Below, piece by piece: positions 8,786-64,000 of a DNA stretch of 64,000 nt (positions are counted from its first letter, which is position 1; each line of letters starts with the position of its first letter). The position numbers and the translations under genes were made by a program. Source of the stretch: Takakia lepidozioides (Eukaryota > Plantae > Bryophyta); assembly GCA_030704615.1 (NCBI GenBank), contig CM060733.1, forward strand, positions 9,052,001 to 9,116,000, written 5' to 3'. The notes beneath the pieces are model-generated. The model saw nothing but the letters and a program-made list of their open reading frames with translations, had not been told where the DNA came from and searched no databases.

Positions 8786-8826
8786 GATGAGGTCGATCCC
8801 AAGGACGATCGCGTACTGAACTCTAA

Positions 8827-8838
8827 GCTCTGATACCA
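8827..8838 (-). promoter_or_regulatory. Primer binding site complementary to tRNA-iMet
   Basis: Minus strand reads TGGTATCAGAGC, 2 nt inside the 5' LTR. Confidence 0.93.
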
Positions 8839-8840
8839 AA

Positions 8841-9567
8841 TGTCGCGCACCTCACTTCGGTAAGCTCCCCTTCAAGTCAGAGTTACTCGCTTGATGCGCG
8901 CGCCTAACTCCCAAACTGGCCGCCGGGCCAACTCGGAGCTTCGGCTGCTCACCGGGGCATAACGGTCCCCCTTTACTCCTCCACTAGACCCTCTCCCAAT
9001 TTGGGCCTAGTGGAAATTCCCTTTGGTCGATGGCAGTCCGGAATAGCTCCCCACGCCTTGGTCGCTTTCCGGCTCGCACGCTTACCCACTAGTTTTGGAC
9101 ACCAACGGGCTTGCACCGTTCTCGGGGTTACTACTCCCTATATATATACTTTTGTGACTGTCCGCAGGGGTTTCACAAACAACACCACCATTTTATGGCG
9201 AACCACCACGAAAACCCTCGATTCCCGGTGATGAGTCGCGGTGAGTCTTGGCCCACCCACCACGGTCCCCTTGGACCGTGATGAGTCCCAAGACTCCCCA
9301 CGACTCCGACCACAAGGTCTCCGCCCCCATGGTGAGTCCTATGCCACCCCCACTAAGTCCCACTAAGCTACCACCATCCCTTGTGGAGCCACCCCCACCG
9401 CAACCCGGTGTGCGGGGCTCCACTTAGTGAGTGCCTCCGCCTCCTCGAGTGCCTTGGGCACTCGAGGTTGCTTCAGCCCCCCGTACCTATTGCTGCCACC
9501 GCCCCCACCACAAGGGGCAGCCCCTCTGCGACCCGACCCCCTGCCCTCAAGGCAAAGGGCCGTGACA
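8841..9567 (-). repeat. 5' LTR of chromovirus copy 1
   Basis: TGTCGCGCAC...GCCGTGACA; adjacent to the PBS. Confidence 0.95.
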
Positions 9568-10045: not shown

Positions 10046-10587
10046 CATTGGGCCCCTCATTGACCACGAGATCACGGTCGCAAGCTCTAGCAATTGACAG
10101 TGCAAATCAGGCCACAGCATCAAATTTCACATCCTCGGACAGTGATGACTAGGCTTTTAATGACTGGCAGCGTAGTACATATACAATATGCATTTTTGTT
10201 GTATCTTGAATATTGTTGGAAAACACAGTGATGGCATTCCGCCAAGTTTGTATATCACCAATTTTGTTAATACACAATGCACATGTGCGGCACCTGACCA
10301 AAGTTTTCTTCACATTTACACTCGTGTGATGGGGAAGAAGTAGTTCACCCTGTAAACAAATTTACAATGGTGTCATATTTGGTCATGACGTGTATATGGG
10401 TATTTGCAATGAACTCCGAAAGCTGGAGAACAAGGAAAATTGATGTTAACAAATAAGTTATAACGAGTTACGAACGGTCCTCTTCCAAACAAATTTCGCC
10501 TGGTCCCTGCGTATTTCATAATCATTTCGCAAAATCTATGATCTTTCTACGTACATACCCACAAAGTTCTCAAAACACAAAATAATT

Positions 10588-14720: not shown

Positions 14721-17700
14721 AAAAAAAAGTCTGGCACAACTAATTATAAACCAATGGGGTTGGTCACTTTGCCCATTCATGTTAGTAGATATAGTGTTGT
14801 GCTAACCTGCATTCTCACTATGGGAGAGCAGATGCTGCTTGACCTTGATTGGATGAAGGGTGCAGAGGTCGGCATTGACATCAATCAAAATCCAACTACC
14901 AGATCTGAAGATTATAAAGTGTAGAGTGAAGACAACACTAAGAAATAGGTGCCAAAAAAGCATTTTTTTGCTCATTTTTGGGCAGTTTTAATTTTATTTT
15001 CTTTGAGAGTCTCAAGAATGTTGCTCGATACTTGATAACACATATTCTCATAAATTTTCAGTTTTTTCTGAAATGTTCTCAAGTGGGCTCCTTTGTAGTG
15101 ACAAATTGGGGGGTCAAAATTTGCTATTTTCTCTAGGCAAGCCAAAATCTCTCTTCTGAAAATCATACAAAAAAATTGTGCCGTTCAATTCCTAATCCCT
15201 TCGGTAGAAATGTCATGGGCATCCATATGAAGTCCCCAACAAGCTTTGGGGCCAATTAGGCAATGCCATTGCATCTTTAGGTTCCCTGCCCAAGACTTCA
15301 AATGGAACACCTATGTTAAGCAGGGCTGGTTAACCAGAGGGGTTCCCAAACCCCGTGCCCTTCTGGGCTATGGCTCCAAATATCCTAGGCCTGCAGGCTC
15401 ATGGGGGGCCACTCCACCCTCAACCTTATCAAACCCCCGCCCTAGGTTTGGCCCACCCCTCATGGGAGTTTTCTTGAGCTGCAAGCTGTGCCGCCATCGC
15501 GGCTGTACCCTCCAGCCCGCCCTGCTATGGGCCCATGGTGTTGGCCGGAACTGCCATCGCCGTCGATTTCAGGTTAGGGCGCAGGCCTGGGAATGCCCAG
15601 ACCTGCACTAGCCACCATGTCCCCGCCGGCAATCAAGGGGTTTGGGGAAGCGTGCCGCCTGCTCCTTTATGGGGTAAGTTTCATTCACACTAACCCGACC
15701 GCAACTGCCATGTCAGCAACTTGGGCAAGTTAGGGGGGGTCAAAATGGCCTCAAAAAGCTGAGTTGGCCCCCTTCCCATTGGTCTAGACCCGTACCCCTT
15801 CATGCTTTGACCAATGCCATATGGGAGGAGACCCGATTTTCTATCAATTGAGCCCAAAAAAGGTCCAATCAACCTTAACCACAGGAAGTTATGGTTGGTT
15901 AAGCAAACCCAACCGACCCAAAATGGGTCGTTTTGGCACTTAAGGGTTAAAAGATAATATAAGGAAGACGGCGGGGGAGTACTGGTATTGTGGCTGGTAT
16001 GAAAAAATTGATACCAGCCTGGTCTGATATATGACCAAGTATTCTCCCACATGATACCATACTGGTCTGGTATCTAATACCAGTGCATATACCAATATAT
16101 ATACAAGTCCTTCACCTATATACCATACATATTGGTATTGGTATGCTCTTCTCCCCCTTCCCTTGGGCGGTGTCCCATTTGGACGCCTTCATGGCGAGGT
16201 TACCGTGAAAGAGGGTTACCGTGAAAGAGGTTACCATAGAGGCCGCTCTATTTCGACGGACCCCTGCCGGAATTATTAAATACATGCAGGTCGCCAGGTT
16301 CGGCAGGCTTAATGACAATATTAATTTTTTCGTCCAAGCTTCATCCAATTTTTCTGGAATTCGGCACCCCGGGTACTTTTCATTAAATTAGGTGATTCAC
16401 GGACAGTTGACATTCTATGTGGCAAGTCATAGTGATGGTTAGCCATAACTCTATGTGGCAAGCCATAATCATGGTTAGTGGTAAACGCTGCATTTTTAAT
16501 AAGTCTCAAACTTGACGTTTAGGAGTTGACTACAGTATTTTTGTTGCATTGGACAGTTCCCACCTTTTTTCTCAAAGTTCATTTTTTTAAATGAAGATTA
16601 TTCCCTATTTCGTCTATTCCCATGGCAGAATTTTAAAATATTCGTCCTCTCTTAAAATGAATTAATTAAAGTCGGAATAAAAACGACATCTACGGTATTT
16701 GTTATATTGTCTTCTCACTATTGAGGGGCCTGATTGAGGTTACTGTGAAAGAGGTTATTTTCTCCTCTCACTATTAAGGGGCCTCATTTGTGAGCTGTCG
16801 CTCCCAAGTGTTTCCCTTTTTTTAAAACAAAATGTTAGGGGAAAGAATTGACCCACAAAGGTCCTCAGGTTGAACGGCATTGAGATGTCATAAAACAGTA
16901 AGAAATTCGACAGAAAAATGGAGGTTTTAGCCTGGGTGAGTCCATGCAAGCTCAACGCCTCATGAAACATGCTCGCAGAGATAGGTCCAACTCTCCAACT
17001 CATTCGAGGACATCCATACAGCAAGACTTGTCGCCAACTACAGGGTGTTAGAGTGATTCTTGACAGACAAGCTGTTATTCTTATGACTCTAACAAAGGAC
17101 CCTAACAGCTTTGCCATGGGAGTAAAAAATTCTGGATAGGTAGAGTGTTGTGTCAGACACACTCCCAACAAAGGAGCGCAAAGCAATGCTATGTCTCTAC
17201 CAGTTGTGAATATAAAATCTGGACACATTTATGGCTAGAGTTGGAGCTATCACTTCACTTGCCATGAATGCAATAAAATTTATGTCGCCTCCATGTGGTT
17301 CTGTTTGTGCAGATTCAAGCCTCATCAGATGCACTAGTCACCATGATAAGCATTCCAAATCTGCAGTTACATGGCAATTCTTAGTTGACCCTACTATATG
17401 GAACCCCCTGCTATGTCAAACTCATTTTGGAGTCATTAAATAGGGTCTTTTGAAGGCTTAACTCAAAGGGCTAAAGTCTTAACATATCTTCCAAGTTCGA
17501 CAAAAGGGTTGGAGTACCGTCTGTATGTCTCATTAGACTTAGTTTGTTGCTGTCCTTCATGGACTGGAAGACAATAGTCACCAAGACAGCGTTCATAAAT
17601 TATCAACATACAGATTCACCATCCTATGTCCTGCAATAGGCATACAATCCAACTCTGAAACACAAAAATGCGATGTACTCGCTTTTGACCCTGTAATATT

Positions 17701-17867
17701 TTAGGCCTAGACATCATATTACACTGAATGAATTACTGCCCAGGCCTCAGTTTGTGCCTTCAAAAATCCAAAACGCTATTGCAAACTATATCAGCAACCC
17801 TAGGGTTCAGACTACAATTTCATTACCTCCAAAATCCATGTTACATGTAGTCCTTATTGATCATGAG

Positions 17868-27680
<9,813 letters not shown>

Positions 27681-28097
27681 CCCCTCTTGTGAAACTGTCA
27701 AATTCTCAGAACCAGGAAATGTTCAACCAGCTGCTCCCCCCATAACCTTCACCGAGCATTGCCTGTCATAAAAAGGAACGCTGACAAGCAAGGGCAGGAG
27801 CCTGCCGTCTTGGCTCACACCATGGCCTCTTGCTTGCTCTGACTGAAGGAGAGAGACGACCCCTCTGCCGATACGGACCCATTCTGCCTTTTCTCATTCG
27901 TTCAAATATAGTTGGACTACATCTGAACCATAGGATTTTATTTAATTAATGGTATTTATAAACCGTCGACTATTTTCACTCCAACGGTTGAGATATGTCA
28001 GGTGTCAACGAGGTGAGTTAGTAAGCAAGAAATTTTAGAGAGTGATCCGAGACACAATCCGGGGTGGCAGAGGAGTGTGGCGAAGAGAAGGGGCAAG
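27681..28097. promoter_or_regulatory. Short divergent intergenic region (probable bidirectional promoter)
   Basis: CDC48C ATG at 27680 (-) and Clot ATG at 28098 (+) are 417 bp apart, with an AT-rich core at ~27930-27965. Confidence 0.55.
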
Positions 28098-45881: not shown

Positions 45882-47137
45882 TTGTACTCATAAGACGTTG
45901 TTTGCCGTAGCCTTGTTGCCATTGACCCCTCACCCAGTTTGAGCGGGAACAAAAGGGACAAAACCTACCTCTGTTAGGGGCTGACGTTGGTAGTAAGACT
46001 TACCTTCATATATAGAATTAATCCGGGTTTTCCAGATATCCTCTAGAAATCCCTTCACACAAGCATCAATCTGTTGTGTGTGATTTGCCCAAAAACTAGG
46101 CCTCAGGAGGGCCTGGGCTTTTGGCTCAGCCCCGAGACTTTCAAAGTTGGTAAACAGGGGTACAGGCACAATTCCCTTGATAGATTTGAAGAGAGCGTCT
46201 CTTTGGTGAGAGAACCCCGGACAGTGTATCAGAAAATGAATACTGTGTTCTGATTGCCCACACAACGGGCAATTGCACTCTCCCTTTCCTCTCTGCTTAT
46301 GTTTGCTGTTCAAAGGTAGGCTTCCTGCCCTGAGTTTAAATTTCAGTCTAGTGCCGAGAGTGGGTAGACCCTTGAGTTCATCCAAGATGTCCTCCCCCAT
46401 GTCACTGACTGGAAACAAGTTCAGGGAAGTTTTCTGCGTAACTTCATTTTCATTAGACAATCTCATGGCACCAGACATGGCTTTGGACACTATAGCCTCT
46501 GCCAGGACTTAGCCTCTGTTTCCAAGATATAGAGTCGATTAACTTAGGATATCTGGTGTTGGGCATATGTTGCAGCTGACCCCACCATATGTGCTTGAAT
46601 TCATCTCATCGGGAGCTTAAGGACGGAATGCCAAACTCACCCCCACCAGGTTTTGGAGCATGCTCACATACACTCTTTAAGCACCCCCACTGCAATGGAT
46701 TCTAGAGACTTAGCTTGGTTGGAGTTATCAACCCATATTGCAGATCTGTACTCCAAGGCAGGTCTAATAACGCGACAAAGCATGGTTTTCTTAACCTCGG
46801 AGTTGACCTCTCTGCAGTGGAAAAATTCAGTGAGCCCCAGAGCTTTGCCCTTGCCAGTTTGAACAACTTTCCGGATATGTGCATCCCAATTACAATTGGA
46901 GAAAAACTCAACGCCCAGGTAAGTGTAAGAAGGGAGGACCGGGATCTCTTGGCTACCCCACTGCCACTTAAGATCACTTCCTCCCTCTCCTCTGTCGTTG
47001 AATGCTACCACTGCACATTTGTTGTCATTAGCCTCTAGCCCCCAAAGATCAAAGTATCTCTTCGTGCAATCAATCAACTCTTGGAGATTGGTTTGAGTCT
47101 CCCCTATGCCTGCGAAGTCATCCGCAAACATAAGGGC
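45882..47137 (-). mobile_element. 5'-truncated non-LTR retrotransposon (RTE/L2-like RT plus C-terminal CCHC finger)
   Basis: FADD, YTYLG and CPLC...HFLIHC motifs; perfect 15-bp TSD TGTTTAGGCCACAGA at 45867-45881 and 47138-47152. Confidence 0.92.
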
Positions 47138-47604
47138 TGTTTAGGCCACAGAATACGCTATTGGTTACAAGCCTAACGCTGGATTGTACAGCCAGTGTTC
47201 GCCATGGGTATGACGAGTGCAGAAAGGCAATTGCGACTATGTGAGTGTAGCATGCATGATGCAGCAAAGTAAGAAATTGCATACTGCTTCTTGTGAAAAT
47301 TGAAGTGGAGTGGGTACTTCTGCAAAGCCTCCATACTGGTGGCATCGTGACATGGAAACATCATCCGACAAAAATGAGGGGAATGGGTAAGGGTTCTTCT
47401 CAACAATAGCACAGAATTGCACAAGCCATGGTGGTGGCTCTGCCAGAAGTTCAAACCAACATTAACAGTCATGGTAATGGCGTGCTAGTCATAGTGCATC
47501 CTGCAAGAAATCTTAGCCCCTCTACACTACAGGTGAACTTCACTACCACCCATGGACCTCTTGAAATCTGGATGGCAGTGAACAAGCATGCTGCCATAAA
47601 AGCA

Positions 47605-50600
47605 TTACACATCAACGTCAGGCAGCTCGTCCGGGCTGTCATCTTCTTCCTCATCGGTACTGTCATTCTCCACCACAATGGGGGCCTCGTTGCGCACATC
47701 CCTGTATAGTGAGGCAAGAACTTCGGGAGTCACTTCAATTGTCTGACCCAAATTCAGGCCTGCAACATGTGTCTCTTCGACTCGTTCAGGGGCTAAGAGG
47801 CCTTCCACACTACGAAGATCATCGTTACCAATTGACACATCACAAACCACCCGAGAAGATCTGGGGCTTTTCTCAAGGACCACATTCCACTGAGGTTCAT
47901 GAACACAAGTGCTGAAAAATACCTGCTCCATTTGTGACAGCAGCACGAATGGCTGCTCTTGTGGAGCCAACATTTGGGAGAAATTCACCAATGTGAACCC
48001 ACAATCATCCTGCTTCATGGATGCATGCTGATTGCGGCTCCCCTTCTTTTCCCGAACCCAAGAACACAACATCACAATGGGCCTTGTCTTCCCATAGTCA
48101 ATTTCCAGTATCTCCCTAATGACACCCACGTATCGCAGGCTTTCTACCACCTCCTCTCCTGCACTATTTGTAGATACATGGTGGAAAACAGATGACACCC
48201 CTGAGTCATATGACACTCTACTTGTGCCAATATTGGTTGAAGACACCCTGTAGTGGTTTCCATAACCTGACATGCTATTGTATGAAGTTGCAATGATCGA
48301 GGGAGGCCTGGACAAGTCCAACATTTGGCAATACATGGGATCAGATTCAGAATTGGGAATCCTTGCCACATGTGAGCGCATAGCATCAACCAGCCAGTCT
48401 GCATATTTGGGAGGAAGAGCCAAGTCAGGTGGGTACTCATAGTCCTCCCCGTGAGCTGCCCTCCCTTCAGCACGTTCTTCCTGCAGAAACAACCAGCAAC
48501 TTGCCTCCACACGTGCTCGAATTGTTTCATACATCCTGACATATATGAATGTGTCCCTCCCGTGAGAACCAACACGTGCACATAATGCAATTACATGACA
48601 ACCAACAACTACAAACAGGCATAAACAGGAAGGGAATGAACTGTTGCATTGTCACCTTTGTTAATGAGCTTCTCACTTACTCGAACATGGCGCGCGCATG
48701 CTAAGATAGTTTTCAATGATGTACTGGTGGAGAACTGAACACAGATCTGCCGTGAATTTGCGGGGTTTCCCTGCTCCTTCCAACACGCAGCCAGACACGG
48801 ATTCCTCCTCTCTTGCATCCCACACTCTCCGTCTAGTAGCATCAAAACTGGCCGTGTACTCTGTGCAAAAGCCAAGAGCCTCCTCAAACATGTAGCCCTC
48901 GGCCATACTGCCTTCGGACTTTGCCATGTTGTGAACGTACCCTTTGTAATCCTTCATAGCCCGCTCCACAGGGTACATCCACCGGGAGGTCACAGGGCCA
49001 CACAAATCCAGCTCGTCAACTAGGTGAATAAGCAAATGCGTCATTATATCAAAAAAAAAAGGGTGGGAACTCTTTTTCAAGGAGGCAGAGTGTGGCAGTC
49101 GCCTCCTTCTTCAGCTCTTCGTGCTCGCTGGGATCAACCACTTTTGCACAAAGTTTGCGAAACACTCGGGATACTCGCAATATGGCATTTCGTACGCCCT
49201 TAGCCATTAAACCACGTAGAGCAAGAGGGAGAACTTGCTGCATAAGCACATGGTAGTCATGTGACTTTAATTGTGAGAGTTTTTTTTTAACAACATGTTT
49301 TTTAAAGGCAGATGCATACCCCGTTGGCACTTTCAGCTTTGTGATTGTGTTCAGGAACACCCTCAGCTCATCTCCTATGAGCACATAGGGCGCTGCGGGC
49401 ATCACGAATGTGTTCTCCCTCGTGGGATGCCTTTGCAACCACAGGTGGGGATGAATGCCTTGTAGCTCAAAGTCACGACGCACCGTCATGGTATCCTTTT
49501 CCCCAAAAATTGTCTTGATGATATTTTCTGTGACATTCTTCTCGCAATGCATCGTGTCAATGGTGTGGCGGATCAGTAGGTGCTGCAATTCATGTGCCAA
49601 AACAATTCACAATAAAGTCAAATGGTGACACAAATATGCCAACACACTAACACACATATGTGAATAAAAAACAAATGCACAAATATGCGAAATAGACAAG
49701 CATGAGTGAGGAGTCCCCGTACCTCCCAATAAGGCAGACGATACAAAATGGACAGCCGCTTGACACCATGGATTTTTGAGGGATCAGCCTCTGCGATTGA
49801 TTCCTCTTCCTCAACCCATTTTGAGTATTCCTCAGCACGCGTCTTGATTTCACTGCCTGTCAGGAGCAGTGAAGCATGTCTCATTTCTCGTTCGCCATTG
49901 AAGAGCCTAGATCTCCTGTATGCATGGTCGGTGGGAAGAAATCTCCGGTGCCCCTGGAATATAATTTTCTGACATGCTGCTGAATACCACAAATCAACTC
50001 TAGAGCCACAGGCAGGGCAACCTACATAGCCTTGGTGAACTTGACCTGCTAGCAGGCCGTACGTTGGGAAGTCGTGTATGCACCACATTAGGATGGCCCG
50101 CATGTTGAAAGCCCGTTCATCATGAATGTTGGCCACATCATGGGCTGGGACTCCCACCCACAATTCCGCCAGCTCCTCCACGAGGGGTTCGAAATACACA
50201 TCAATGTTCTCCATCTTCACGGACTCCTTAATGAGCAGCGACAACATGACAAAGAGTTTCTTGGTCACCAACCAAGGAGGTAAATTGTAGTTGAGTAGTA
50301 GGATGGGCCACGTTGACCAACTCGTGGATTTTGCACCATAAGGATTCACCCCATCCAATGCCAAACCAAGATGCAGGTTGCGTGGATCTGATGCGAACTC
50401 CGGCCAAGTGTTGTCAATGTGCGACCAGGCTTTGCTGTCTGCAGCATGACGAACGAGCCCATCCTTGCTTTTGTGATTGATATGCCAACTCATGAGCTCT
50501 GCCACCAATTTCACTCTAAACATTCGTTTCAACCTGGGTATGAGAGGGAAGTGCCGCAAAACTTTCTTAGGCACCTTCCCACGACCTGCAAAATACCTTC

Positions 50601-51957
50601 CACTTTGGCACTTTGGGCAAAACTCCGCTTTTTCAAGCTCTCCACGGAACAACACACAACCCTGTTCGCAGGCATGAATCTGTTTGTATGCTAGCCCCAT
50701 CCCGGCGATCATTGTTTTTGCCTCATAATGTGATTTCGGTAACGCATTCTCTTTATGCAAAAACGAATCATTCAGTAATGACAGGAGCTCATCCACAAAC
50801 GCATTTGTACACTTGTGGGTCGTGCAACAATTCAGCAGCATCAAAGTTGCTGTCAATCTACTGTGATGACACCCTTCATACAAAGGAATCTGTGACTCAC
50901 TGAATATTTTGTCGTAGTCTCCCTCATATTGTTGCCTCTCATACTCCGTCGCCATCCCACCTCCGTCGTGCAACCCAGTCGAATTTGTGGCATTGTCTGG
51001 TTCCTCAGTGCTTGCATGGGGAATGTCAAATTCATCTTCATTCGCTTGACAAGTCGCGTCCCTTCTGATTCTGTCAGTTGTTTCAAAAGCCTCTTGCAAA
51101 TCACGTTGCATCTCCTGTTGTAAAAGTTGTTCTTGGTCAGGTTCACCCACATCCCTCGTTTCAGGTGTAGGACTGGACGGTCCTTCCTCCCCGTCCGAAT
51201 CTTCATCATACATAATGTGAGCCTGCAATTTGCATTTGCAGCACTAAAGCATGACTCAGCAGTGCAGATACATCAGTAAACGCGAAATGACAAATCAATG
51301 TGTTAGCTGGTATGCCTTGGGCCAGTTCAAATATTGTTCAGGAATGAAGCCATTTTTTGCTTCTTGGAATTGTGCTTGATACATTCACTTCAGTAGTTCA
51401 ACAATGCGCTTGGCTATTATCAATACTTATCCTTGCGGATCCAAGGTTGTCTTTGAGGTTCATCCTCGAATTCTAATCGCAACGAATTGAAACGCCCCCG
51501 TTAATCTTGAAGTGTTTTGGGTGCATGTGTGGAGGTTAGGACACACGTCATGCGATCGTGAAATTAGGTGTAGCCATGCTTAGGACTACCAACGGCATAA
51601 AGTGTAGTCACGGCCATGACTACCCACGGCCCCACAGCCAACGTCTGTGAGACACGTGTTTTGTTAGGCAGTCATGGCGCTCCTGACTAGCGGTGATTTG
51701 AAAAAATGGGACCCCATCTTGAGCAGAGACATCAGGTCGGAAATGCGTGTGGAGTAAGTTGTAGGGTACCTCAGGTTCGGGTCCCTGCGATGCAAGAGGA
51801 GGTGATTCTTTACTGTCTTGCATAGCTTCCACTTGCCACCATGGCACTCTGAGCAACTACACAACATTTTCTTCAGGTTGTTTGCTGTGGCGTAGGCATC
51901 CTCAAACCTCCACAGGTTGTGGTCTCGCAAACTCATTCTCCGCCTATCCCCTGTCAC
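47605..51957 (-). mobile_element. CACTA/En-Spm transposase gene (transposase-associated domain, Transposase_21, DUF4218, DUF4216), spliced and degenerate
   Basis: CSCSEC..VKNHLL; YKQIHAC..GCVLF; RHFPLIPRLKR; ALDGVNPY; IDTMHCEKN; LKSHDYHVLMQ; RWMYPVER; EQPFVL. Introns near 49583-49721 and 48537-48680; frameshift ~49055. TIRs not found. Confidence 0.92.
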
Positions 51958-52209
51958 ACTCGACCCCCCCCCCCCCCCCCTTCTTACATCTTGATCGTCG
52001 TGCTACGTTTAGGGAGGCGATGTGCTCATGCGATGGTCAAGCACGCGGCCACTGCACCCATTACCGACTATGAGAGGCTAAGAGAAGCTAACATTGCTCG
52101 CATCAAGCTCGTTGAAGCGGAGCTGCTGAAAGACATAGCACAGCGAGTTCACTTTTGAACTATCAAAGTCACTCTTTCCGCAGAGGTTTGCAGCTTGTGG
52201 AGCTTGATT

Positions 52210-53280
52210 TCATGCAATGTAGGTAGCTTTGCGAGTTCCTAAGACACCATGAAGAGGATGAGATGAGTGAGAATGGGGGATAGGTGGGTGGTGGATGATG
52301 GACTTTATTTTATGAGTAACGGTTAGTAGATGTTCTAGTTTGTGATAGAAGGTTGTGGGTATGTCAGCGTAGTGGGGGTTTTGGACGTGCATGATGCGGA
52401 TTCGGGTGGGTTCTTTTTGCCTGAGGTATTTGGGAAAAGGGGGGGTATGGATATATTTAAGCTGGTTTGGGTCAATTGTGGCTATTAGCTTGACCTCCGC
52501 AGGGAGGCGTAGAAGTGGGTGGGAGGTGGTAGGTGTGCTTTGATGTGTGAGGATGATGACGGTTGAAGCATAAGAAGAGGAATGTGCAGCAAATTTGGTC
52601 CATTGAAGAGCTTCATGGGAGGTCCAGGTGGGGGGTGAGCGAGACCACGGCCTTCCCAGGTATGCTGGGTAGCATTACCAGAGGCCCCGAAGATGCAATC
52701 TCTATTATGCGGGTTGGCAAAGGTGTCGAGTTCCATAGGGCAGGCTAGTGGGTTGGAGTAGTATGAATGAGTGATCTGAAATGTTTGGATAAGTAAGGTG
52801 AGAATATCTTGGGGAATAGTATGATGTGCGCTTGCCGTTTCTAGTCGCGCAAGGGAACGTGGTTTTTTAGGCGGAGTGTCTTTGAGATAGCGGTCGATAA
52901 GCCAATATACTTCTGTGCCAAAACCTTGTTGAGGTGGAAGTAGCTCATGTGAGTATGTCTTTGGGGCAGAATACTTGCTCCATAGCCATGTTAATCTATT
53001 GGTGGGGATAAGCCCTATGTAATGGCCGTTTTGTGCATATATACTAGAAAGGCGAGGTCCCCTGCGGATTAGAGGTTGGGCATGTTGGATATCTTTGTCC
53101 GGGTTGCAGCTATGCATATGTGTACGTTGGGGCCGAGATCGGTTTATAAACGTATCTATTGTCTATATGTTGAATGGGGGTGGCATGTTGTTGGTGAATA
53201 TGTGTTAGGTAGTCAATGTTAGTGGTTTTGTAGAACGTGGTGAGAAAGGTGAGATTGTGGTCGGGGTCACATTCATCATA
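52210..53280 (-). mobile_element. Degenerate retroelement-like fragment with a PCIF1/N6-adenine-MTase-like segment
   Basis: YSNPLAC...HNRDCIFGASGNA...WEGRGLAHPP resembles the FASPLN...D..FG..G...NPP pattern. The coding strand is A/C-rich, as in LINEs. Confidence 0.45.
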
Positions 53281-54063
53281 TGGGCCAAATAGATCATCTT
53301 CTATTTGCCATGTATTGTCTTCATCAGAGTAGCCGGCCCACTTGCAATGGTAGTAGAGCGCAGTGTAGGTTATGCTCGCATGGTGGAGTGGGCGGGAGAT
53401 CGCCGCATGACGCGGGTCGTGAAAGTGGCTACACTTTTAGGGTTGAGGGGTGCATTAGTTCGTCATCTCCTCCATTATGTTTTCTTTGTCATGTTACACT
53501 CAGGGAACTAGTGGTTGCTTTAGGGTTTACAACACCTTCCATGGGGCGTCCAATGCAGGATTGTGGGAGAGAAGCCAAAGCGTGCAAGACGACGGCCACC
53601 AACCCGCCCCTCTGGTCCCCCAAGACGCAGTAGAAGAATAGAGTCCATGCCCCCCCCCCCCCCACACGGAGATATGCAATTGATGATGACGATGAGGACG
53701 ACCTCTGTGTGCCTGCGATGGAGCACCTCGGGGACTCCGACGAAGACATGCCCGGCGGTGATCCTGCCCCAGCCACCATCTCGCACAAACGCCCAGCAGC
53801 TGCAGAATCTCCATCTGTAAGTACCCAGCTCAGTGTAGGTCATGTGTAAGAATCCAGCCAGATAGGAAAACTGCCCGTCCACAGTTGCATTGCACCAATT
53901 TTGAAAGTACTTGCCAAGTACTATATGGAAAGGAAGGAAATGAAATGAAATGAAATGGTATTTTATAACGTCTGCGGAAAGCTTATAGAGCTTGTGGGAC
54001 AAAATGGAAGAAAACATGAGAGATGAACAAATCCAGAAACCACAATTAATGTTCTAGCGATTG

Positions 54064-54788
54064 TGTCGCGCACCTCACTTCGGTAAGCTCCCCTTCAAGT
54101 CATAGTTACTCGCTTTGATGTGTGCACCTAACTCCCAACCTGGCCGCCGGGCCAACTCGGAGCTTCGGCTGCTCACCGGGACATAACGGTCCCCCTTTCT
54201 TCCCCCAACAGACCCTCCACCAATTTGGGCCTAGTGGAAATTCCCTTTGGTAGATGGCAGTCCGGAATAGCTCCCCACTCCTTGGTCGCTTTCCGGTTCG
54301 CTCGCTTACTCACTAGTTTTTTGTCACCAACGGGCTTGCATCGTTCTCGGGGTTACTACTCCCTATATATACTTCTGTGACTGTCCGCGGGGATTTCACA
54401 AACAACCATGTCATTTTATGGCGAACCACCACGAAGACCCTCGATTCCCGGTGATGAGTCGCGGTGAGTCTTGGCCCACCCACCACGGCCCCATTGGACC
54501 GTGGTGAGTCCCAAGACTCCCCATGACTCCCACCACAAGGTCTCTGCCCCATGGTGAGTCCTATGCCACCCCCACTAAGTCCCACTAAGCTACCACCACC
54601 CCTTGTGGAGCCACCCCCACCGCAACCCGGTGTGCGGGGCTCCACCTAGTGAGCGCCTCCGCCTCCTTGAGTGCCTTGGGCACTCAAGGGTGCTTCAGCC
54701 CCCCGTACCTATTGCTGCCACCGCCCCCACCACAGGGGCAGCCCCTCTGTGTCCCGACCCCCTGCCCTCAAGGCAAAGGGCCGCGACA
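54064..54788 (-). repeat. 3' LTR of chromovirus copy 2
   Basis: TGTCGCGCAC...CCGCGACA, homologous to the LTRs of copy 1. Confidence 0.93.
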
Positions 54789-57700
54789 CACACCCCTACC
54801 AACAGGGAGTCGATGTCCTCATCGACTTGTCCATTTTGTAGAAACGAACATCCAAGTTGTGGCGTCCCACATCAAGGAGTTTGTTTCCGCACCATGGCGT
54901 CCCATGGCAAAGAACCAAACCCCACACTTGACTCTACTCTCCACTAGCTAGTTCGGCCGACTTTCTCCAAGTCCCGGCCAAGGGTGGAGCCTTTCAAGCT
55001 CCTCCCAGTGCACTCTTCTTGGCCCACTTCACGGCCAAGGAACGATCCTCCCCGAGGATCGAATCGCCTTACTGCAACAACATTGCTTGCGACCGCTCAT
55101 GATGCCGCTTTTGGCATCACCTTGAGCAAAGGTTCACCTTGAACCCTTTTTGACTAGGAAGATAACCTTGAACCAACCGTGCGCCCCAATCACTACAATT
55201 AGGTCCGCCTTGGAATGTTGGCCTGAGGTACGGGAACACGCCGAAGCTGCACTACGACTTTGTCCCAAGGCTACACGACTATAGTACGTGAACGGAAGCA
55301 CGTAGCTTCCGCGTTAGCCCGCACTACAAGGCAACCCCCTCGGTAGCGCAGTTATAGTACGCGCACGCGCCAGCTGCGCACTAGCACGTGAACTCCCAAA
55401 GAAGGCGCAAGTTTCATTGCCCCTTGGATGGGAGTCACCCGATTTTGGTACTGCGCAAACACACGATTAATCCAATTTACCTCTCTCACTTTTATAAGCT
55501 AGCATGCATTCTACACACTAGCCAACCATACCATGCATCACCATTCCAAACAAAATGGGAGGCGCAACATTTGGAAACCATTTCATTTATAACAAAATTT
55601 GTACAACACAAGTTTTTGCAATCGGATTACTGAGCTAGCTAAGCCGGGCTAAGCATGCATTTCCTCCCCCACGATCCAAGGTTGATGTCCCCATCAACAC
55701 TTCTTCCGCTTTTGAGGTCGCCCTTCGAAAGCTGCAATCGCCTCGGATGCGTTTCCCATTTCTGAGGCACGCACCCAAGATGCCTCCACATGATGATAGC
55801 CCTTCCATTTCACGAGATACTCCGTTTCTCGATTCTTGAACCTCCTCGACTTAAGCACTGCCTCCACCTCGTACTCAGGTTCATTTTCATGATCCCACAG
55901 CACAAGTGGCGGACGCGTTTCATCTTTGAAGTAAGGCTTCAAAAGGGAAACGTGGAATACCAGATGCATCTTGCTGTTTGCCGGCAGCTCCAATTCATAC
56001 ACATCCTCATTCATAACCTTCCGGATGCGAAAGGGTCCCGCATACGGAGGTACGAACTTCGGACTCACTTTCAGAGGTAGTCAAAAATTCTTGATGTTCG
56101 ACCAGACCTCCATGCCTGCCTCAAATTTGACTTCCCTTCGCTTCCGATTTGCCTACCGTTCATACCGTTTCCTAGCTTTGGCGATGTTGTACTTTGCGAG
56201 CTTCAACAAGCGTTCGCGTTCCTCCAACACCGCTGCTGCTGCCGGTTCCTCAACGTCTTGGGCAGCCCAATTTGTCGGCACTAGAGGTGCTTTTCCATAG
56301 ACCAATACGAAAGGGGAAACACCCGCTGTGGAGTGTTTTGTGTTATTATAACATAACTCTGCCACGTCCAAGTGCTCCACCTAGTCCGATTGGTCCGCCG
56401 ACAAGTAATTCCGCAAGATCTGCTTCACCACGGAATTTACCCTTTCCATTTGGCCGTCTGTCGTAGGTCGGAAGGCGGTGCTCATCTTGAACCTCGTCCC
56501 CATCTTCTTCCAAAGTGCTCTCCAAAATTTACTTGTAAACTTTGGATCGCGGTCCGAGACAATATCCTTCGGGAGTCCATGATGCTTGAAGACATGGGCG
56601 AAGTAAAGTCGCCCCATCTCTTGTGTTGTTGCCGTCTCCTTGGTGGGGATGAAATGACCCATTTTACTGAACCTATCCACCACCACCATGATTGCATCGA
56701 ATCTTTTTGACGGCGGCATAGCAGTCATGAAATCCATCGAGACACTTTCCCAAGACCCCTCTGGAATCGGCAGGGGTTGTAATAGCCTCGCTTGTTTTTT
56801 GTACTCGCTCCGGTTTTGTTGGTATGTGGTGCATGTCTTCACATACTCCTCGGCCTCCTCCATCAGTTTGGGCCAGAAATACTTTTTCTTCAAGAGTGCC
56901 GCGGTGCGCTTGGCTCCGCCATGGCCCGCAAGCGGGCCATCATGGCATTCTCTCAAAAGACTATCTCTGATCCCTCCCATCGGCACGTAGAGACGTTTTT
57001 GCTTATACCGGAGCAGTCCATTTTGCAAGTGGAACTGCAATTTAACCCCATCCTCAAGTCTCGCATCACGGACTTCGTCATCTCATCCTTCCGGTAAGCC
57101 TTTCGGATCTTCCTTTGGAGCGCCGTCTCGCCTCTATATACCAACAAAAGCTGCTACTTTCTACTTAAAGCATCGGCCACCACATTGTCTTGTCCCGGTT
57201 TGTACTGGATATCCACGTCGAAGACCGCCAAAGTTCTTGCCACCTAAGTTGTTTTGGGGACAACTTAGGCTGCGTGGCAAAATACTTCACCGTGACACTG
57301 TCCGTGAACACCTTCACCGGGTTGGAACCAACATAGTGGCGCCAAAACTCAAGGCAATGCACCACCGCCTTCATTTTCTTCTCATGCGTAGGCCACCGTC
57401 GCTCTACTTCATTCAGTTTTTTACTTTCGTAAGTCACTGGACGTCCATCCTGCATGAGTACACCCCCTATAGCGAAGTCCGACGCATCCGTATGAATCTC
57501 AAATGGACGGTCAAACTCCGGGATTTTGAGGACTGGAGCTTCCGCCATCCGCTGCTTCAACTCGGCAAAAGCTTGACCACAAAAGGTGTTCCATACCCAA
57601 ACTTTGGATTTACACAGAAGGTTGGACAGGGGCCCCGCGATCTTGGCAAAATTTCTCACATACTTCCGGTAATAGGAGGCGAGTCCTAGGAAGGATCGCA

Positions 57701-59402
57701 CTCCCGGGACCGAAGTCGGAGGCTCCCAGTCCAAGATCGCCCTCACCTTTCTGTCATCCATTTTGATCCCATCCTGTGTAATCACATGCCCTAGGAACTC
57801 AACTTTTGTGACCCCAAATTCGCACTTTGAAGCTTTGGCATACAGCTTCCCTTCCCGCAATTTCTGGAACACCCTTTTGAGGTGCTCCAGGTGCTCTTCC
57901 TTTGTTTTCGAGTACACCAGTATGTCGTCGATGTATACGATCACAAAGTCATCCATCCACTCCTGGAAAAGGCTGTTCATTAGCGTGCTAAAGGTCGCGG
58001 GTGCATTGGTGAGCCCAAAAGGCATCACCAAGAACTCATACGAACCATATCTTGTCCTGCACGCGGTCTTCTCCTCATCTCCTTCCGCCACTCAGATCTG
58101 ATGATACCCAGAGCGCAAATCGATCCGGCTGAAATACTTCGCTCCTGCCAACCAATCGAAGAGGTTGTCGATCCTTGGCAAAGGGTACCGGTTCTTGATA
58201 GTCACCTTATTCAGGGCCCTGTAATCGACACACATCTTGTCTGCGAATAGCACCGGGGCTCCGTAAGGTGACTTACTCGGCCGGATGTACCCCTTTGACA
58301 TTAGATCCTTGAACTGAGTCTTCAGCTCAACCAACTCTCTGTGGCTCAACCGGTAGGGCGCCTTGGCAGGCGGCTCCGATCCCGGTATCACCTCAATCTT
58401 GTGGTCAACTCCCCTTCGCGGTGGCAAGCCGCTTGGTAAATCCTTCGGCATCACATCTTGGTATTTCTCCAAAATCCCCTTGATCAATCTGGGCTCGGCT
58501 CCCCATCGCCTTCCCCCTTCACTTGTCTTACATAAAGCAAAAACAGGGGCTCGTGTGACTCCTCCACGGCCCACTCCCTTGCTGACAGAAGGTTTATTCA
58601 CCCTCCCACGGGGTTGGGCGTTTCCGACACTCGTAAAACTTCGCTACCATTCCCACACGGTAGCGTGACTACTCTCTTGCGGCCATCTATGACTGCTCCG
58701 GATCTGCTCAAAAAGGTCATCCCCAAAATGAGATCCACTCCATCGATTTCGCAAATGGTGAAGTTCTTACGTCCCTCCCAACTCTCGAGCTGAAGAAGAA
58801 CATCGAACGCCAACCTCGTCGCCAATTGTGGTTCTCCTTTAGCAGAACGCACCTCAATAGAGGCCCCCACATCACTTGTCGGGAGTCCCAGTTTCCGTGC
58901 CGTTGCCGGTGTCATGAAGGAGTGCGACGCTCCTGTGTCCACCAACAACGACACGTTAGTTTCGGAGATTATCCCACTCACAAACATTAACTGACTCCCT
59001 TTACAGAAGGCGCCAGTTTCCTAATACAACTCACAAGAGTAGTTGCCTACCTTGCAAGTCTTGGCGACCACCGCCTCCACCAAGCGGCTGATGGAAGCTT
59101 CGGATAACTCCGTGGTTGCCCGAGTCACGTTCAATTGTCGGGGATTCGTACACTTCTTGGCCATGTGCCCAGGCTCCCCACAATTGAAGCATACTCCATC
59201 GAAGGTCGCCTTTTGTCCACCATAAGGCGTCGCACCTCATTTTCCTTTCGGAGCACCCGGTGTCGTCTTGGCGTGTGAAGGCCCTCCCTTTGATTTCCAC
59301 GTGCCATTGTCGCCGCGTGGCCTATCCCACGTCTTTTCCGGACGAAAGGAGTCACCCTCCCGCCGAGTCTTCTTGTGGTTCAGCTCCGTACGGCCTTGTC
59401 TT
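54064..59402 (-). mobile_element. Second copy of the chromovirus (3' LTR to gag C-terminus), interrupted by a nested element
   Basis: Colinear with 2607-7976. Intact protease motif LVDTGASH, YIDD, IHTDASD, integrase and chromodomain. Homology stops abruptly at 59402. Confidence 0.95.
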
Positions 59403-59920
59403 TGTCGTGCGCATACATATCGCTACACAACTACATCGCTGTCCAAACCACACCACACATATATGCACAATAAAGTAGTCTGCCACAATCGCACATACAC
59501 TTCCAACACAAGAAATATGAAATCCATCGCTATCACTCATTGAAACTGAAGTCGAGCCAGGGGCACCCCAAGCTATGGGGACTCCACCCCACAACAACCT
59601 GTATCCCTACATAAGCACACTAAAACCTAAACACATGCAGGAGCTCGGTCGCGCAGGCTCAACTCGAGAAAGATGAGCCGCGCGACTGCCGCTCTCGTGA
59701 AGATAAGACGGACCAGGTGTCAAACTAAACTTGACACCTGATTTAACACTTGACCTAAATCCAAGTGTTAAATACAAATAACTAGTTTTATTCTAGCTGT
59801 TTTCACACTGTGCTTATTTAACTTGACAGCTGTCGTGCGCATACATATCGCTACACAACTACATCGCTGTCCAAACCACACCACACATATATGCACAATA
59901 AAGTAGTCTGCCACAATCGC
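59403..59920 (-). repeat. 3' LTR region of the nested element, with a 90-bp perfect direct repeat
   Basis: 59403-59492 is identical to 59831-59920. The LTR inner boundary is either 59828 or ~59916. Confidence 0.8.
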
Positions 59921-60175
59921 CCCCCTAGCTGGTGGATAGGTCCCTCTACCTCCAGATAGCTACAAGATGTAATAGCCACAGCCGTACTAAGTCCTCTATC
60001 ACTGTCCCTATTGTACTCAAACTCTATAGACCAAGAGGCCGGGTACAAGAGTAGCCCCATCGTTAGTCGCCGTCTTGCAATCTATGAACTTGAGCCAAGA
60101 TCTCGTGTGTTCAAGGTCTCCTAGTAGCTGGGTCTTGCGTTTCTTGTTAACCTCCCATGGTTGTATCCACTCCCA

Positions 60176-61440
60176 CTATCCAATGCAATGTGGACATAAC
60201 CAATCCCCATCCGGAACCATCTCAAGAGGTGGAGTCAAGCATCCCATATGCCAACCTCTAGAGCACCGATCACATACCAGCATGGTGGCTGCCCCTTTAG
60301 CAGACCCACACAACATGCACCTCAAACCTGCAGATACCACTGCCAGGTTTGGGTCAATCCTGCCATCGACATTCGGAAGGTGACATGGCGCACAATTACG
60401 CACATGGTCCTTCCAAGTGATGCCATCCCGACCCTCCAAGACCAAGACGCCTGAGGGCAAGACCTCTCGAACCCTCAAAATAACACGTCCTGCAGTCACA
60501 TCCAGGGTCGTAGGAGCAGTCTGCTGCAGATAGACATAGTCACCAGGGTTGAATCTCCGAACCCCAGGACGATAGCCCCCACCACGTATGGTAGCATACC
60601 TCAACGTATCACGGTGTTGTGCAATGGCAAGGTTCTCGAAAGCCATGGGCATGACTCTCTTGAACAACTCTGCACGCTGCTCACATGCACGTGCCCACAC
60701 GTCCGGATCGTCAAGGTTAAGAACTGTAGCAGCTTCTCTGCGAATGGATGTAGGCAAATCCGGCTCTCGGCCAAAGAGAAGAAAGTATGGTGAGAAAGAG
60801 GCAAGTGATGCTTGCTTGCTGAACCTGTAGCCCATGGCTAACCAGGGTAACTGAAGGTCCCAATCTCCTAGGTGTCCTTTCTGCAAGCCATACTTGCGCA
60901 AACCCCTCTTTACTGTCTGAACAACTCTCTCTGCCAAGCCATCAGCTTCAGGATGATCCCGAGAAGTGGTGCGGTGGTCTATCAAGGCTTTGTCACACAA
61001 AGCCTGAAACTCCCCCAAGAACTCTCTCCCTTGGTCCGTGAGTACCTCAGCTGGAGCACCGAATCGGCTAAGCACACAATCCAGGAATGCATACGCAGCT
61101 CCCTCACTAGCCTTATCAGGCAATGGAACTAATTCAATCCACTTGGAGAAGTGCTCCACCATCACCAACACGTACTTGTTGTGGCGCATGGTCAGTGGCA
61201 ACGGCCCTGCGAAGTCAAGACTCCACCTGTAGCCCAATCCCATGATCGGAAGAGGGTGCAATTGTGGAGTAGGGGCGTTGAATGAAGCACGCACCCTGTC
61301 ACACACCATGCACCTAGCCACAAATTGTTGCACCTCTGTGTGCATACCACGCCACCAATACTGCCCCTGCAGTAGACTATGAGTGCGTCGCACCCCAAAA
61401 TGCCCCAACTCCTCATGGGCATGCCGCACTAACCGGCCCG
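60176..61440 (-). CDS. Integrase with C-terminal PHD finger
   Basis: HEELGH...CMVC Zn finger; SLDFAG, LTDQG and LAER catalytic DDE; C4HC3 PHD CMLC..CDRC..WHMGC..WLCPHC at 60185-60319. Confidence 0.92.
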
Positions 61441-63309
61441 CTGTGTTGGGTGAGGCACAATCCTCACTCGACCATCCTCCCACACTCGGAGCAGGTGTGT
61501 CCCCTCCCACCTGAACCTCTTGGCTCGTTGTAGGATCCGATCCCTCTCCTTGGCAGTCATAGTGGCTGCCGTGTCTCCACTGCGGAGGTAGTCCAACACA
61601 ACTGAATCCTCATGTATATCTTTGGCGCCACCCTGCTCATTGCTGGCCTCAGGGTCCTCAGACACTTGATCTACAGTCATCCCTGTTGTAGGTCCAACCT
61701 GGCCTTCCGCTGCCAAGATACACAGAAATGCAGATGCATGCCATCCGGGCACCATCTCCTCGTCCGTCTCACCATGCCACCGAGCTCCAGTGTCATCCTG
61801 CTGGCTCGTGCATGGATTGCGACTCAACCCATCTGCATTTCGATTGACCAAACCCGGTCGATGCACCACCTGAAAGTCATACTCTTGAAGGATGAGTGCC
61901 CACCGTGCAAGCTTCCCCGTAAGCTTGTCTGACTCCATCAACCACTTGAGTGGTTGGTGATCCGTGACAAGGGTGAAGAGATTGCCGTATAGATAGCACC
62001 TGAAGTGTGCCACGGCCCACACTGCAGCTAAGCATTCTCCCTCATATGAGCTATACTTAGACTCTGCAGCATTGTTCGAGCGACTAGCATAAGCCACTAC
62101 GAACTCTCTTCCCTCATCATCCACCTGTGTGAGCACCGCTCCAAGCCCCAGCATGCTCCAATCTGTATGCAGCTGAAAAGGACGCCCCCTGATAGGTCGT
62201 CTCAAGATGGGCGCCGAGGTCAACCTCGCCTTGAGCTCTTGAAAAGCTTGTTCTTGCTCATCTTCCCACTGCCACTCCTGGTCCACCTTGGTCAGCTTGG
62301 TTAGAGCCTTTGCAATGGCACTAAATCCCTTAACAAACCGTCTGTAATAGTTTGCTAACCCCATGAAAGCTCGAACTCGGCTCACATCCGTGGGACGTGG
62401 AACCTGTGCAATGGACTCTACCTTAGTCTGCTGTACCCCCAATCCTCCAGGATATATCATGTGACCCAGGTACTCAATCTGGTTGTGGAAAAACTTGCAC
62501 TTGCCCGGATGTAACTTCAATCCGTGCGTCCTCAAGCGCTCAAATACCCCCTGAAGGTGTCTCTCATGCTCCTCCACCGCAGCACTAAAGATGATGATGT
62601 CATCTATGTAGCACCGAGCAAACTCCACCCCTGCTAGAATCCTGTCCATGACTCTTTGAAACTCAGCGGGAGCGTTTTTAAGCCCAAATGGTAAGAACCG
62701 CCATTGGTATAGGCAATCCTTCCCGTGCTCATTGATCCCCCAGAATGCCGTCTTTTGCTTATCCGCCTCCTTGATCGGCAACTGGTGATATCCGGATCGT
62801 AAATCCAACGTGCTAAAGACCTTGGAATGCCCAATGGCATCAAAGATCTCCTCTGGTGTTGGCATGGCATACCTATCGGACTTGGTCTGACGATTTACAG
62901 GCCGGTAATCACCGCACATACGTCTCTCCGTCCAATTGCCATAGACATCCTTCTTAGCTGGCATCACTGTGGCTGAAGCATACTCTCCACCAGAGAGCTC
63001 CACCAAACCTGCCTCCCAGAGATCTTGAGTCCTCATCTGAATCAAAGACCTCTCCATGTCACTGTATCTATAGGGTCTCCGAAAGATTGGCGTATCAGTG
63101 GCCAACTCAATACGGATCTCTTGACCCTTCAGTGCTCCCAAGTCCTTCAAACTGAAGGCAAAGCAATTCCTGTAAGCCCTCAGGAACCGCCGTATACGTC
63201 GTCTCTCTCCTCCGGTGACAATGGGTCCAATGTCAGGCTCCCAATTGTCCTCCGTAACTGCAACCTTAAGTCCAGTGGGCTTAGAGGTAGAGGACCCGTC
63301 CCGTGGTTG
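61429..63309 (-). CDS. Reverse transcriptase and RNase H of the nested element
   Basis: RMCGDYRPVN; LDLRSGYHQ; LPFGLKNAP; CYIDD; LHTDWS; YSSYEGECLA; NADGLSR. Confidence 0.95.
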   Translation of the reverse strand, partial: QPRDGSSTSKPTGLKVAVTEDNWEPDIGPIVTGGERRRIRRFLRAYRNCFAFSLKDLGALKGQEIRIELATDTPIFRRPYRYSDMERSLIQMRTQDLWEAGLVELSGGEYASATVMPAKKDVYGNWTERRMCGDYRPVNRQTKSDRYAMPTPEEIFDAIGHSKVFSTLDLRSGYHQLPIKEADKQKTAFWGINEHGKDCLYQWRFLPFGLKNAPAEFQRVMDRILAGVEFARCYIDDIIIFSAAVEEHERHLQGVFERLRTHGLKLHPGKCKFFHNQIEYLGHMIYPGGLGVQQTKVESIAQVPRPTDVSRVRAFMGLANYYRRFVKGFSAIAKALTKLTKVDQEWQWEDEQEQAFQELKARLTSAPILRRPIRGRPFQLHTDWSMLGLGAVLTQVDDEGREFVVAYASRSNNAAESKYSSYEGECLAAVWAVAHFRCYLYGNLFTLVTDHQPLKWLMESDKLTGKLARWALILQEYDFQVVHRPGLVNRNADGLSRNPCTSQQDDTGARWHGETDEEMVPGWHASAFLCILAAEGQVGPTTGMTVDQVSEDPEASNEQGGAKDIHEDSVVLDYLRSGDTAATMTAKERDRILQRAKRFRWEGTHLLRVWEDGRVRIVPHPTQRAG

Positions 63310-64000
63310 CTATGCTGCAACCTCTTGAGCAGTACCCCCTTCCTGCTCAGTCAATGACAAGGCCTCCTCCTGCCCCATCATTTCATCCTTGAGAACCTCC
63401 TCATCCCGAGAAGAATCCCCAACCTCATCCATCACAGCTGCCTTCGCTGCCAACTCCCTCTGAACCTCGAGCACCTCCCACATGTGCCATGGATGTCTAC
63501 ACCTCGTGGTCCTCACCGGCTCGCCCCCACTCGCTGCCTGTACCGTCTCGGTAGGCAGAGAGACCGTCAAGGGAAGTACACTCCGCACTCTACGTTGCTC
63601 AGCCATAGCCAAGCTGACAATCCAGGTCAAGCAATTGAGATCCATTGCTTGCCCCAACACCTGACGACGTGATGCCTCAGAAAGAGAAGGCACCGCCGTG
63701 GTCCCAGTGGAAAACCCCATAGCCCGCTCTCGCTCGTCGGCATTAGGCTCCACTAACTGCTGCAACTGAGCATCCCACAGGAGGCCAGGTCCACCATCCC
63801 GAAAAGCATGGGATCCTGGGAAGCTGAGCAGTGTAGGTAATGCTGCTCGTGGTTGACCCACCCTGTTGACCACTGCCAAAGGCGAACGGTCATCGTGTCT
63901 CACACGTTGAGACTGCCTTCCTGTGTCCAAAATGCCATCCACGGTGAGGTGTGCTGGCCGCTGCACCCCATCAAATGCACGCTTGAGCAGTGCGGGTGGC
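63310..64000 (-). CDS. C-terminal part of a DNA (cytosine-5)-methyltransferase-like domain plus linker, in frame with RT
   Basis: PTL, ERERAMGF (motif IX-like) and SRRQVLGQAMD (motif X-like), spaced like the DNMT3-type E.ER.FGF...T....S...R...LG. 159 nt (53 sense codons) separate the TAG at 63310 from the RT ORF. Confidence 0.75.
   Translation of the reverse strand, partial: PPALLKRAFDGVQRPAHLTVDGILDTGRQSQRVRHDDRSPLAVVNRVGQPRAALPTLLSFPGSHAFRDGGPGLLWDAQLQQLVEPNADERERAMGFSTGTTAVPSLSEASRRQVLGQAMDLNCLTWIVSLAMAEQRRVRSVLPLTVSLPTETVQAASGGEPVRTTRCRHPWHMWEVLEVQRELAAKAAVMDEVGDSSRDEEVLKDEMMGQEEALSLTEQEGGTAQEVAA

Follow-up and report, generated by a model that had tools for sequence, protein, structure and literature searches.

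The window analysed here, a 64,000-nucleotide stretch of the Takakia lepidozioides genome (contig CM060733.1, positions 9,052,001 to 9,116,000), ends within a retroelement encoded on the minus strand. An open frame at 63310-63999 (-) contains the peptide quoted in the original prediction (ALPTLLSF..EPNADERERAMGFSTGTTAVPSLSEASRRQVLGQAMDLNCL), and its frame is shared with an ORF for reverse transcriptase (RT) and RNase H at 61429-63309. The upstream part of this open frame, 63580..63999 (-), encodes the C-terminal portion of a C5 cytosine methyltransferase of DNMT3-like type (the target-recognition region with motifs IX and X) and continues past the window edge. Profile alignment places the motif IX region, EPNADERERAMGF, at 63712..63750 (-) and the motif X region, SRRQVLGQAMDLNCL, at 63628..63672 (-). 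A variable linker at 63313..63579 (-), in which an HPW motif is kept and the length of which varies by family, forms the end of ORF1. It is closed by a conserved in-frame stop (the TAG itself at 63312-63310) in the readthrough-type context TAG-CAA-CCA, or UAG-CAR-YYA (63304..63312 (-)).

Beyond the stop lies the Pol region. Reverse transcriptase and RNase H (61432..63309 (-); Pfam matches RVT_1 at ~62455-62925 and RNase H at ~61879-62268) are read in the DNMT frame and are followed by a DDE integrase at 60320..61432 (-) with Pfam matches to Integrase_H2C2 and rve. In the window copy a one-base gap near 61435 shifts the integrase out of the RT frame; other contigs are without this gap. The polyprotein ends with a C-terminal PHD finger and stop codon at 60176..60319 (-), assigned by Pfam and by structure neighbours, a feature on which the original prediction was silent. 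Taken with the complete relatives described below, the Ty3/Gypsy domain order PR-RT-RH-INT with a DDE integrase is present. The tyrosine recombinase that is the hallmark of DIRS and Ngaro elements is absent, an rve integrase being found instead, and the C-terminal chromodomain that is the hallmark of chromoviruses is likewise absent, its position being occupied by the PHD finger. The solved PHD fingers nearest to that of the element are those of CHD4, PHF12, KDM5A/B, ATXR5, DPF3 and PHF21A, most of which are readers of unmethylated H3K4. The finger is also without the aromatic-cage tryptophan typical of H3K4me3 readers.

The element interrupts a chromodomain-bearing Gypsy element at 54063..59402 (-), of which an uninterrupted sister copy lies at 2607-9567; the two copies are 92% identical and their CHG depletion exceeds that of the DNMT element. 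Elsewhere in the window there is a CACTA-like element (Transposase_21, DUF4218, DUF4216) at 47608-51243 (-) and, adjoining CACTA-like transposase genes, a decayed coding stretch at 52200-53440 (-) with a chromodomain-like segment and a match to PCIF1_WW (CAPAM-like adenine methyltransferase) that falls below the Pfam cut-off (E 4e-4). Atlas clusters for this stretch carry PF12237, and it may represent another transposon equipped with a methyltransferase. An NVL-like host gene, coding for an AAA ATPase that has a nucleolin-binding domain, contributes exons at 16700-27700 (-). Related pieces of a non-LTR-type RT element, 79% identical and in opposite orientation, are found at 23390-23958 and 45883-47140, and tandem arrays with units of ~53 bp and ~120 bp at 1-469 and 10584-12995.

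The 229-residue methyltransferase fragment encoded in the window is not identifiable alone, having no PF00145 match in a Pfam scan and no meaningful match among PDB sequences, and its identity is therefore established via its relatives. A search with the first 140 residues of the fragment returned 102 relative proteins at E<=0.01, many with PF00145. These include named proteins of Marchantia polymorpha, Calypogeia fissa, Riccia sorocarpa and Sphagnum at 60-81% identity, the remainder being JGI, ENA and Logan proteins. The match to PF00145 envisaged in the original prediction is thus missing from the fragment itself and present, above cut-off, in 16 of the 19 relatives scanned. Motifs IX and X are the only ones within the window, motifs I, IV and VI of the Takakia copy being outside it. 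It had been proposed that the catalytic motifs would lie beyond the window edge and in the relatives they do lie upstream. In the closest relative (96% identity) motif VIII is found immediately upstream of the point where the window stops, and the closest complete relative, a Calypogeia protein (P0004, 77%), has motifs I, IV (GWPC), VI (ENV) and VIII. All four were matched in eight relatives that are either named or long (P0004, P0007, P0009, P0013, P0016, P0017, P0051 and P0055).

A profile built from 36 relatives aligns ERERAMGF..RRQVLG of the window with EMERVFGFP..RQRLLG of DNMT3A, the second stretch of this alignment being weak by itself (9.7 bits). The best match of the profile is DNMT3A (7.5e-22), followed by DNMT3B, DRM2 (2e-8) and bacterial enzymes including HhaI. 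The uninterrupted domain of one metagenome locus (L001), which is 72% identical to the window tail, gave a predicted structure of pLDDT 87 and pTM 0.88, and when this model was submitted to Foldseek all 33 of the listed matches were to DNMT3A/B/C (best E 3.4e-18). The motif order in the DNMT3-related domain of the relatives is normal and the catalytic residues are conserved. Judged by profile and model, the domain is real, DNMT3-like and conserved, with DNMT3 its closest counterpart in sequence and predicted fold. The claim that a DNMT3-type domain resides in a Gypsy-type element is accordingly borne out by the PF00145 matches of the relatives, the profile ranking and the DNMT3 fold of the L001 model.

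When the window tail was compared with 12 loci, synonymous sites were found to be near saturation (pS 0.68-0.82) and pN was 0.18-0.33, similar to the values for RT in the same comparison (0.13-0.32); these loci are decayed copies and pN is consequently inflated. In the five pairs for which it could be computed, omega for the DNMT tail was 0.07-0.21. The dN/dS comparison suggested in the original prediction thus indicates that the methyltransferase domain is under purifying selection. CpG depletion was considered as a mark of self-methylation and rejected as non-specific: observed/expected CpG is 0.64 in the DNMT element and 0.84 in the neighbouring chromovirus, but the DNMT-free CACTA-like element, at 0.63, equals the DNMT element and the measure therefore does not discriminate. 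This non-specificity, together with the inactivity in yeast of the comparable KnitGypsy-Dnmt3 enzyme, a result that its authors judged inconclusive (PMC5890265), could be taken to favour a methyltransferase that catalyses little or nothing and is kept for DNA binding or as a decoy. Such a role appears very unlikely to us, as the SAM-binding motif I, the catalytic PC and ENV are retained in relatives down to ~35-40% identity.

The original prediction explained the TAG between the DNMT frame and the RT-RNase H ORF as a CAG>TAG-type mutation in a single polyprotein. It is the only stop separating the two, and the coding sequence is open on either side. Of 80 metagenome loci, 59 extend from the DNMT tail into the start of RT. 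In 48 of these 59, TAG or TAA is followed by CAA-CY at one fixed offset, whereas CARYY directly follows only 3 of the 602 stops that these loci have acquired through decay. Grouped at 80% nucleotide identity, the window and the loci yield seven families, the largest of which accounts for 47 of the 48 with the stop motif; several of these are duplicates of one insertion. The linker of this family matches that of a named Sphagnum protein, and its context is CAA-CCC, which agrees at five of six positions, with an ATG two codons later. TAG-CAA-CCA is found in the window, L033 and L053, and TAA-CAA-TCA in three of the six loci of the L066 group. The contexts in L062 and in the L068 pair fit only if one decay change is allowed, and the stop has been lost in two loci (L038 and L058). 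Counted by family, four of the seven have an exact CAR-YYA, one has CAA-CCC and two fit after one decay change. The linker flanking the stop differs in both sequence and length. Among named ORF1 proteins, seven from Marchantia, Calypogeia and Sphagnum terminate 96-99 residues past motif X, as against 113 in the window. Conserved in position and context, the stop is on this comparative evidence a feature of the elements and not a lesion.

These data also bear on whether the window preserves a fragment of a host DNMT3 that was captured just once, the TAG having arisen by decay. The lack of a Pfam match for the isolated fragment and the presence of a second lesion in the window copy, the integrase frameshift, would be in keeping with such an event. 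The domain, its position and the stop are all family-wide, however, the domain being found in 102 relatives, 80 loci and the 83 long proteins described below. A one-off capture, which the original prediction had held open in case other family members lacked the segment, is thereby refuted and retains virtually no probability.

Plant viruses use UAG-CAR-YYA as the signal for type I readthrough (PMC3542737; PMC2754532). The conserved stop places the DNMT in ORF1 together with Gag and protease, and its context suggests that the methyltransferase is likely made at the Gag level, with Pol produced by predicted readthrough. A stimulatory stem-loop behind the stop was considered and dropped: no conserved RNA structure was found 3' of the stop (z -0.6 to -1.8, no compensatory pairs). 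Type I readthrough requires no downstream structure. The same element might alternatively reach Pol by splicing (as in Ogre), by reinitiation or from a second promoter, in which case CAR-YYA would be incidental. Reinitiation would be permitted by the ATG that stands two codons after the stop in the largest family, but this ATG is missing from the window, L033 and L053, and the coding frame is open both before and after a single stop. Moreover, CCA and TCA are both found, which fits YYA rather than a single amino acid, and the gene models that would document splicing are mutually inconsistent, every one of the eight that fuse DNMT to RT having a different junction, as expected if predicted introns dodge a stop. 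We regard these other routes to Pol as quite unlikely and readthrough as the likely one.

Complete relatives are ~9.2 kb long and have the order A - gag - zinc knuckle - protease - DNMT - stop - RT - RNase H - integrase - PHD - B-A-B. In place of two ordinary LTRs they thus have split repeats, an arrangement not mentioned in the original prediction. The B-A-B part is seen in the window and the full A..B-A-B arrangement in L025/L030 and L076. In the window a purine-rich tract that is conserved among relatives (59918..59930 (-)) adjoins the upstream side of the 90-bp repeat B1 (59831..59920 (-)), which ends ...GACA. Repeat A2 (59493..59828 (-)) starts TGTC, its partner A1 being the 5' end of full-length relatives, and repeat B2 (59403..59492 (-)) forms the 3' terminus of the element, ending ...GACA at 59403. 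B1 and B2 are 100% identical, which points to a recent insertion. The loose ends of other contigs coincide with the junction between the element and the chromodomain Gypsy element. The elements have the ends TGTC..GACA (TG..CA), and 4-bp target duplications are exact in four of the five distinct main-family insertions that have both ends, the fifth having one mismatch. Termini and duplications agree with the Ty3/Gypsy superfamily, in which TG..CA ends are accompanied by duplications of 4-6 bp. Copies with a single B at the end also exist. L049 and L055 have a common flank, with B-A-B in one and B in the other, so shortening can follow insertion; L005 (5416-14053), L055, L064 and L049 are A..B-reduced insertions with the target duplication intact, apparently through B-B recombination. 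Two named groups of elements were compared on these features. Identity with Troyka was rejected, as Troyka has CG..CG termini and a 3-bp duplication and is described from animals only, in contrast to TG..CA and 4 bp here (PMC12440569). The target preference of Phygy is NCGN (PMC6317226), to which the duplications TACA, CATA, TGTG and TGTT do not conform; the portion of that paper available to us mentions neither a methyltransferase nor a PHD finger.

Unlike canonical Ty3/Gypsy elements, which have a complete LTR at either end and a primer-binding site for a tRNA, these elements have split repeats, and inspection by eye of the sequence 3' of 17 5' repeats revealed no TGG-type primer-binding site. 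As no such site was seen, we propose, more tentatively than the coding functions, that the B-A-B end may rebuild the termini as in split-repeat DIRS-like elements. The internal B1|A2 junction (59825..59834 (-)) is a palindrome, GACA-GC-TGTC, with a shape like that of an end-to-end circle junction; it is intact in the window, L002 and L006, the spacers of other copies having decayed. With the same reserve, processed ends might arise if the integrase opens this CA-GC-TG junction by cuts offset by 2 nt: cleavage behind each junction CA would leave recessed CA ends with 2-nt overhangs. Recessed CA ends of this kind are the substrate shape used by integrases. Palindromic circle junctions are cut by foamy virus integrase (PMC1180852) and, by analogy, a circle route of replication is plausible.

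The domain is not confined to elements with the stop. With a distant relative as query, 83 long proteins were retrieved and, among proteins of at least 800 residues, three layouts are seen: ORF1 stopping after the DNMT (26 GAG-PR-DNMT proteins), a direct fusion of DNMT and RT, to which named Closterium proteins belong, and the DNMT sited between RNase H and integrase (30 RT-RH-DNMT-INT-PHD proteins). In a large clade formed by P0129-P0179 the same DNMT has moved to a position between RNase H and integrase, and almost all members have a PHD finger; EukProt and algal-like metagenomes are the source of some of these proteins. In an RT tree of 36 of the 71 RT rows, with one long-branch outgroup and with an L025 row that combines pieces of a second RT, the stop-type elements are monophyletic (12 rows, support 100/99) and a starred group (96/94) unites the named Closterium relatives with the land-plant clade. 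A DNMT tree of 98 near-full-domain rows, comprising element DNMTs only and omitting both Closterium proteins and nine others that are near-duplicates or gene models, also recovers the stop-type elements as one clade (0.993) with the exception of P0118, which terminates after the DNMT but groups with single-ORF elements. The nesting of the stop-type clade among fused forms makes a single origin of the stop likely. The occurrence of the DNMT in three architectures across many polyproteins suggests an old family of the green lineage rather than a capture confined to Klebsormidium. No named vascular-plant, hornwort, Physcomitrium or Klebsormidium protein was among the relatives, an absence that is weak given that the searches were word-based, and no relative was found in viral contigs.

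Taken together, the sequences lead us to favour, as reasonably probable, a cycle in which Gag-protease-DNMT is made in bulk and Pol by occasional readthrough, the packaged DNMT methylates new cDNA and the integrase delivers the product to silent chromatin. Most ribosomes would terminate after the DNMT and a few percent would proceed into RT-RNaseH-integrase-PHD. The methyltransferase would be packaged at capsid level as part of the Gag-protease-DNMT ORF1 and released within the particle by the protease. The cDNA of the element would then likely be methylated before integration, probably in the CG context, such that new copies arrive pre-marked, and the PHD finger may steer integration toward H3K4-unmethylated chromatin. 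A DNMT3 carried by a DIRS element performs de novo CG methylation in yeast (PMC5890265). Production at the Gag level would also yield a surplus of enzyme, and an active methyltransferase might instead act after integration or in trans, entering the nucleus to methylate inserted copies or neighbouring chromatin and so damping its own family or reshaping the host methylome. This option was named by de Mendoza et al. (PMC5890265), and in heterochromatin plant DNMT3b methylates CG and CHH sites de novo (PMC6453930). In all three architectures, however, the DNMT is either in frame with capsid and protease or within Pol, which fits packaging, and we consider action after integration unlikely in comparison with methylation in the particle. 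A still broader proposition would join all of these elements: an ancient green-plant lineage of integrase retroelements, present in liverworts and peat mosses, that makes an active DNMT3 at capsid level via a leaky stop, replicates through a tRNA-primer-free split-repeat circle opened at CA-GC-TG and sends PHD-guided, pre-methylated copies into silent chromatin, as a class distinct from canonical LTR elements. In its entirety this is possible but doubtful.

No description of DNMT-Gypsy elements in land plants, or of their stop, was found in the searched literature, most subscription journals and Repbase lying outside it. DNMT-bearing elements have been attributed only to 'streptophytes' in the available parts of two accounts (PMC12344493; bioRxiv 10.64898/2026.05.21.726589), and, according to a further paper, land plants 'such as tracheophytes' lack methylase-encoding transposons (PMC6338049), an absence that, as printed in the section seen, is contradicted by the bryophyte elements. 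The question of why transposons carry their own silencing enzyme has stood since 2018, the known hosts being hard to manipulate. The Marchantia polymorpha relatives are annotated genes (Mp_4g09160 and Mp_8g17980), so activity, readthrough and cDNA methylation could be tested directly in a genetic model. Split repeats combined with an integrase would represent an unexplored replication route, and counts of DNMT genes in bryophytes may be inflated by DNMT-carrying elements.

Several known systems share individual features with the elements described here. The stop resembles that of type I readthrough systems (tobamoviruses, the SIRE1 env-like gene and the RIRE2 candidate) in having UAG-CAR-YYA followed by an in-frame ORF, but here it lies between Gag-protease-DNMT and RT, and its readthrough is predicted. 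Chromoviruses also have a histone-reader domain on the C-terminus of the integrase, although this is a chromodomain and not a PHD finger, and the RT of the element is ~39% identical to the neighbouring chromovirus-type RT row. EpiLTRs, likewise LTR retrotransposons, combine a DNMT with a chromatin reader; their DNMT, however, is DNMT4-related and accompanied by DAM and a chromodomain, and their authors call them distinct from the streptophyte Gypsy-DNMT3 elements (bioRxiv 10.64898/2026.05.21.726589). SymbioDIRS-Dnmt3 of Symbiodinium has a DNMT3 in a retrotransposon with A-coding-B-A-B repeats but employs a tyrosine recombinase, whereas the bryophyte elements have a DDE integrase, TG..CA ends and 4-bp target duplications. 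The elements are of the same kind as KnitGypsy-Dnmt3, described from Klebsormidium nitens by de Mendoza et al. (2018; PMC5890265), a Gypsy-type element with a DNMT3-related, non-rearranged domain under purifying selection and with DIRS-like repeats combined with Gypsy domains. Its acquisition was regarded as specific to the K. nitens lineage in a study whose survey table, in the version seen, includes Physcomitrella and Selaginella but not Marchantia or Sphagnum, genera that the text seen does not name either (PMC5890265). The hosts here, by contrast, are land plants; the bryophyte elements have a PHD finger, a term absent from the text of that paper as available to us (PMC5890265); and the DNMT of KnitGypsy-Dnmt3 lies within the Pol ORF (PMC5890265), whereas in the bryophyte elements a conserved readthrough-type stop stands between DNMT and RT. 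It is on account of this stop that the element is counted as a variant of the KnitGypsy-Dnmt3 type rather than as a member of it.
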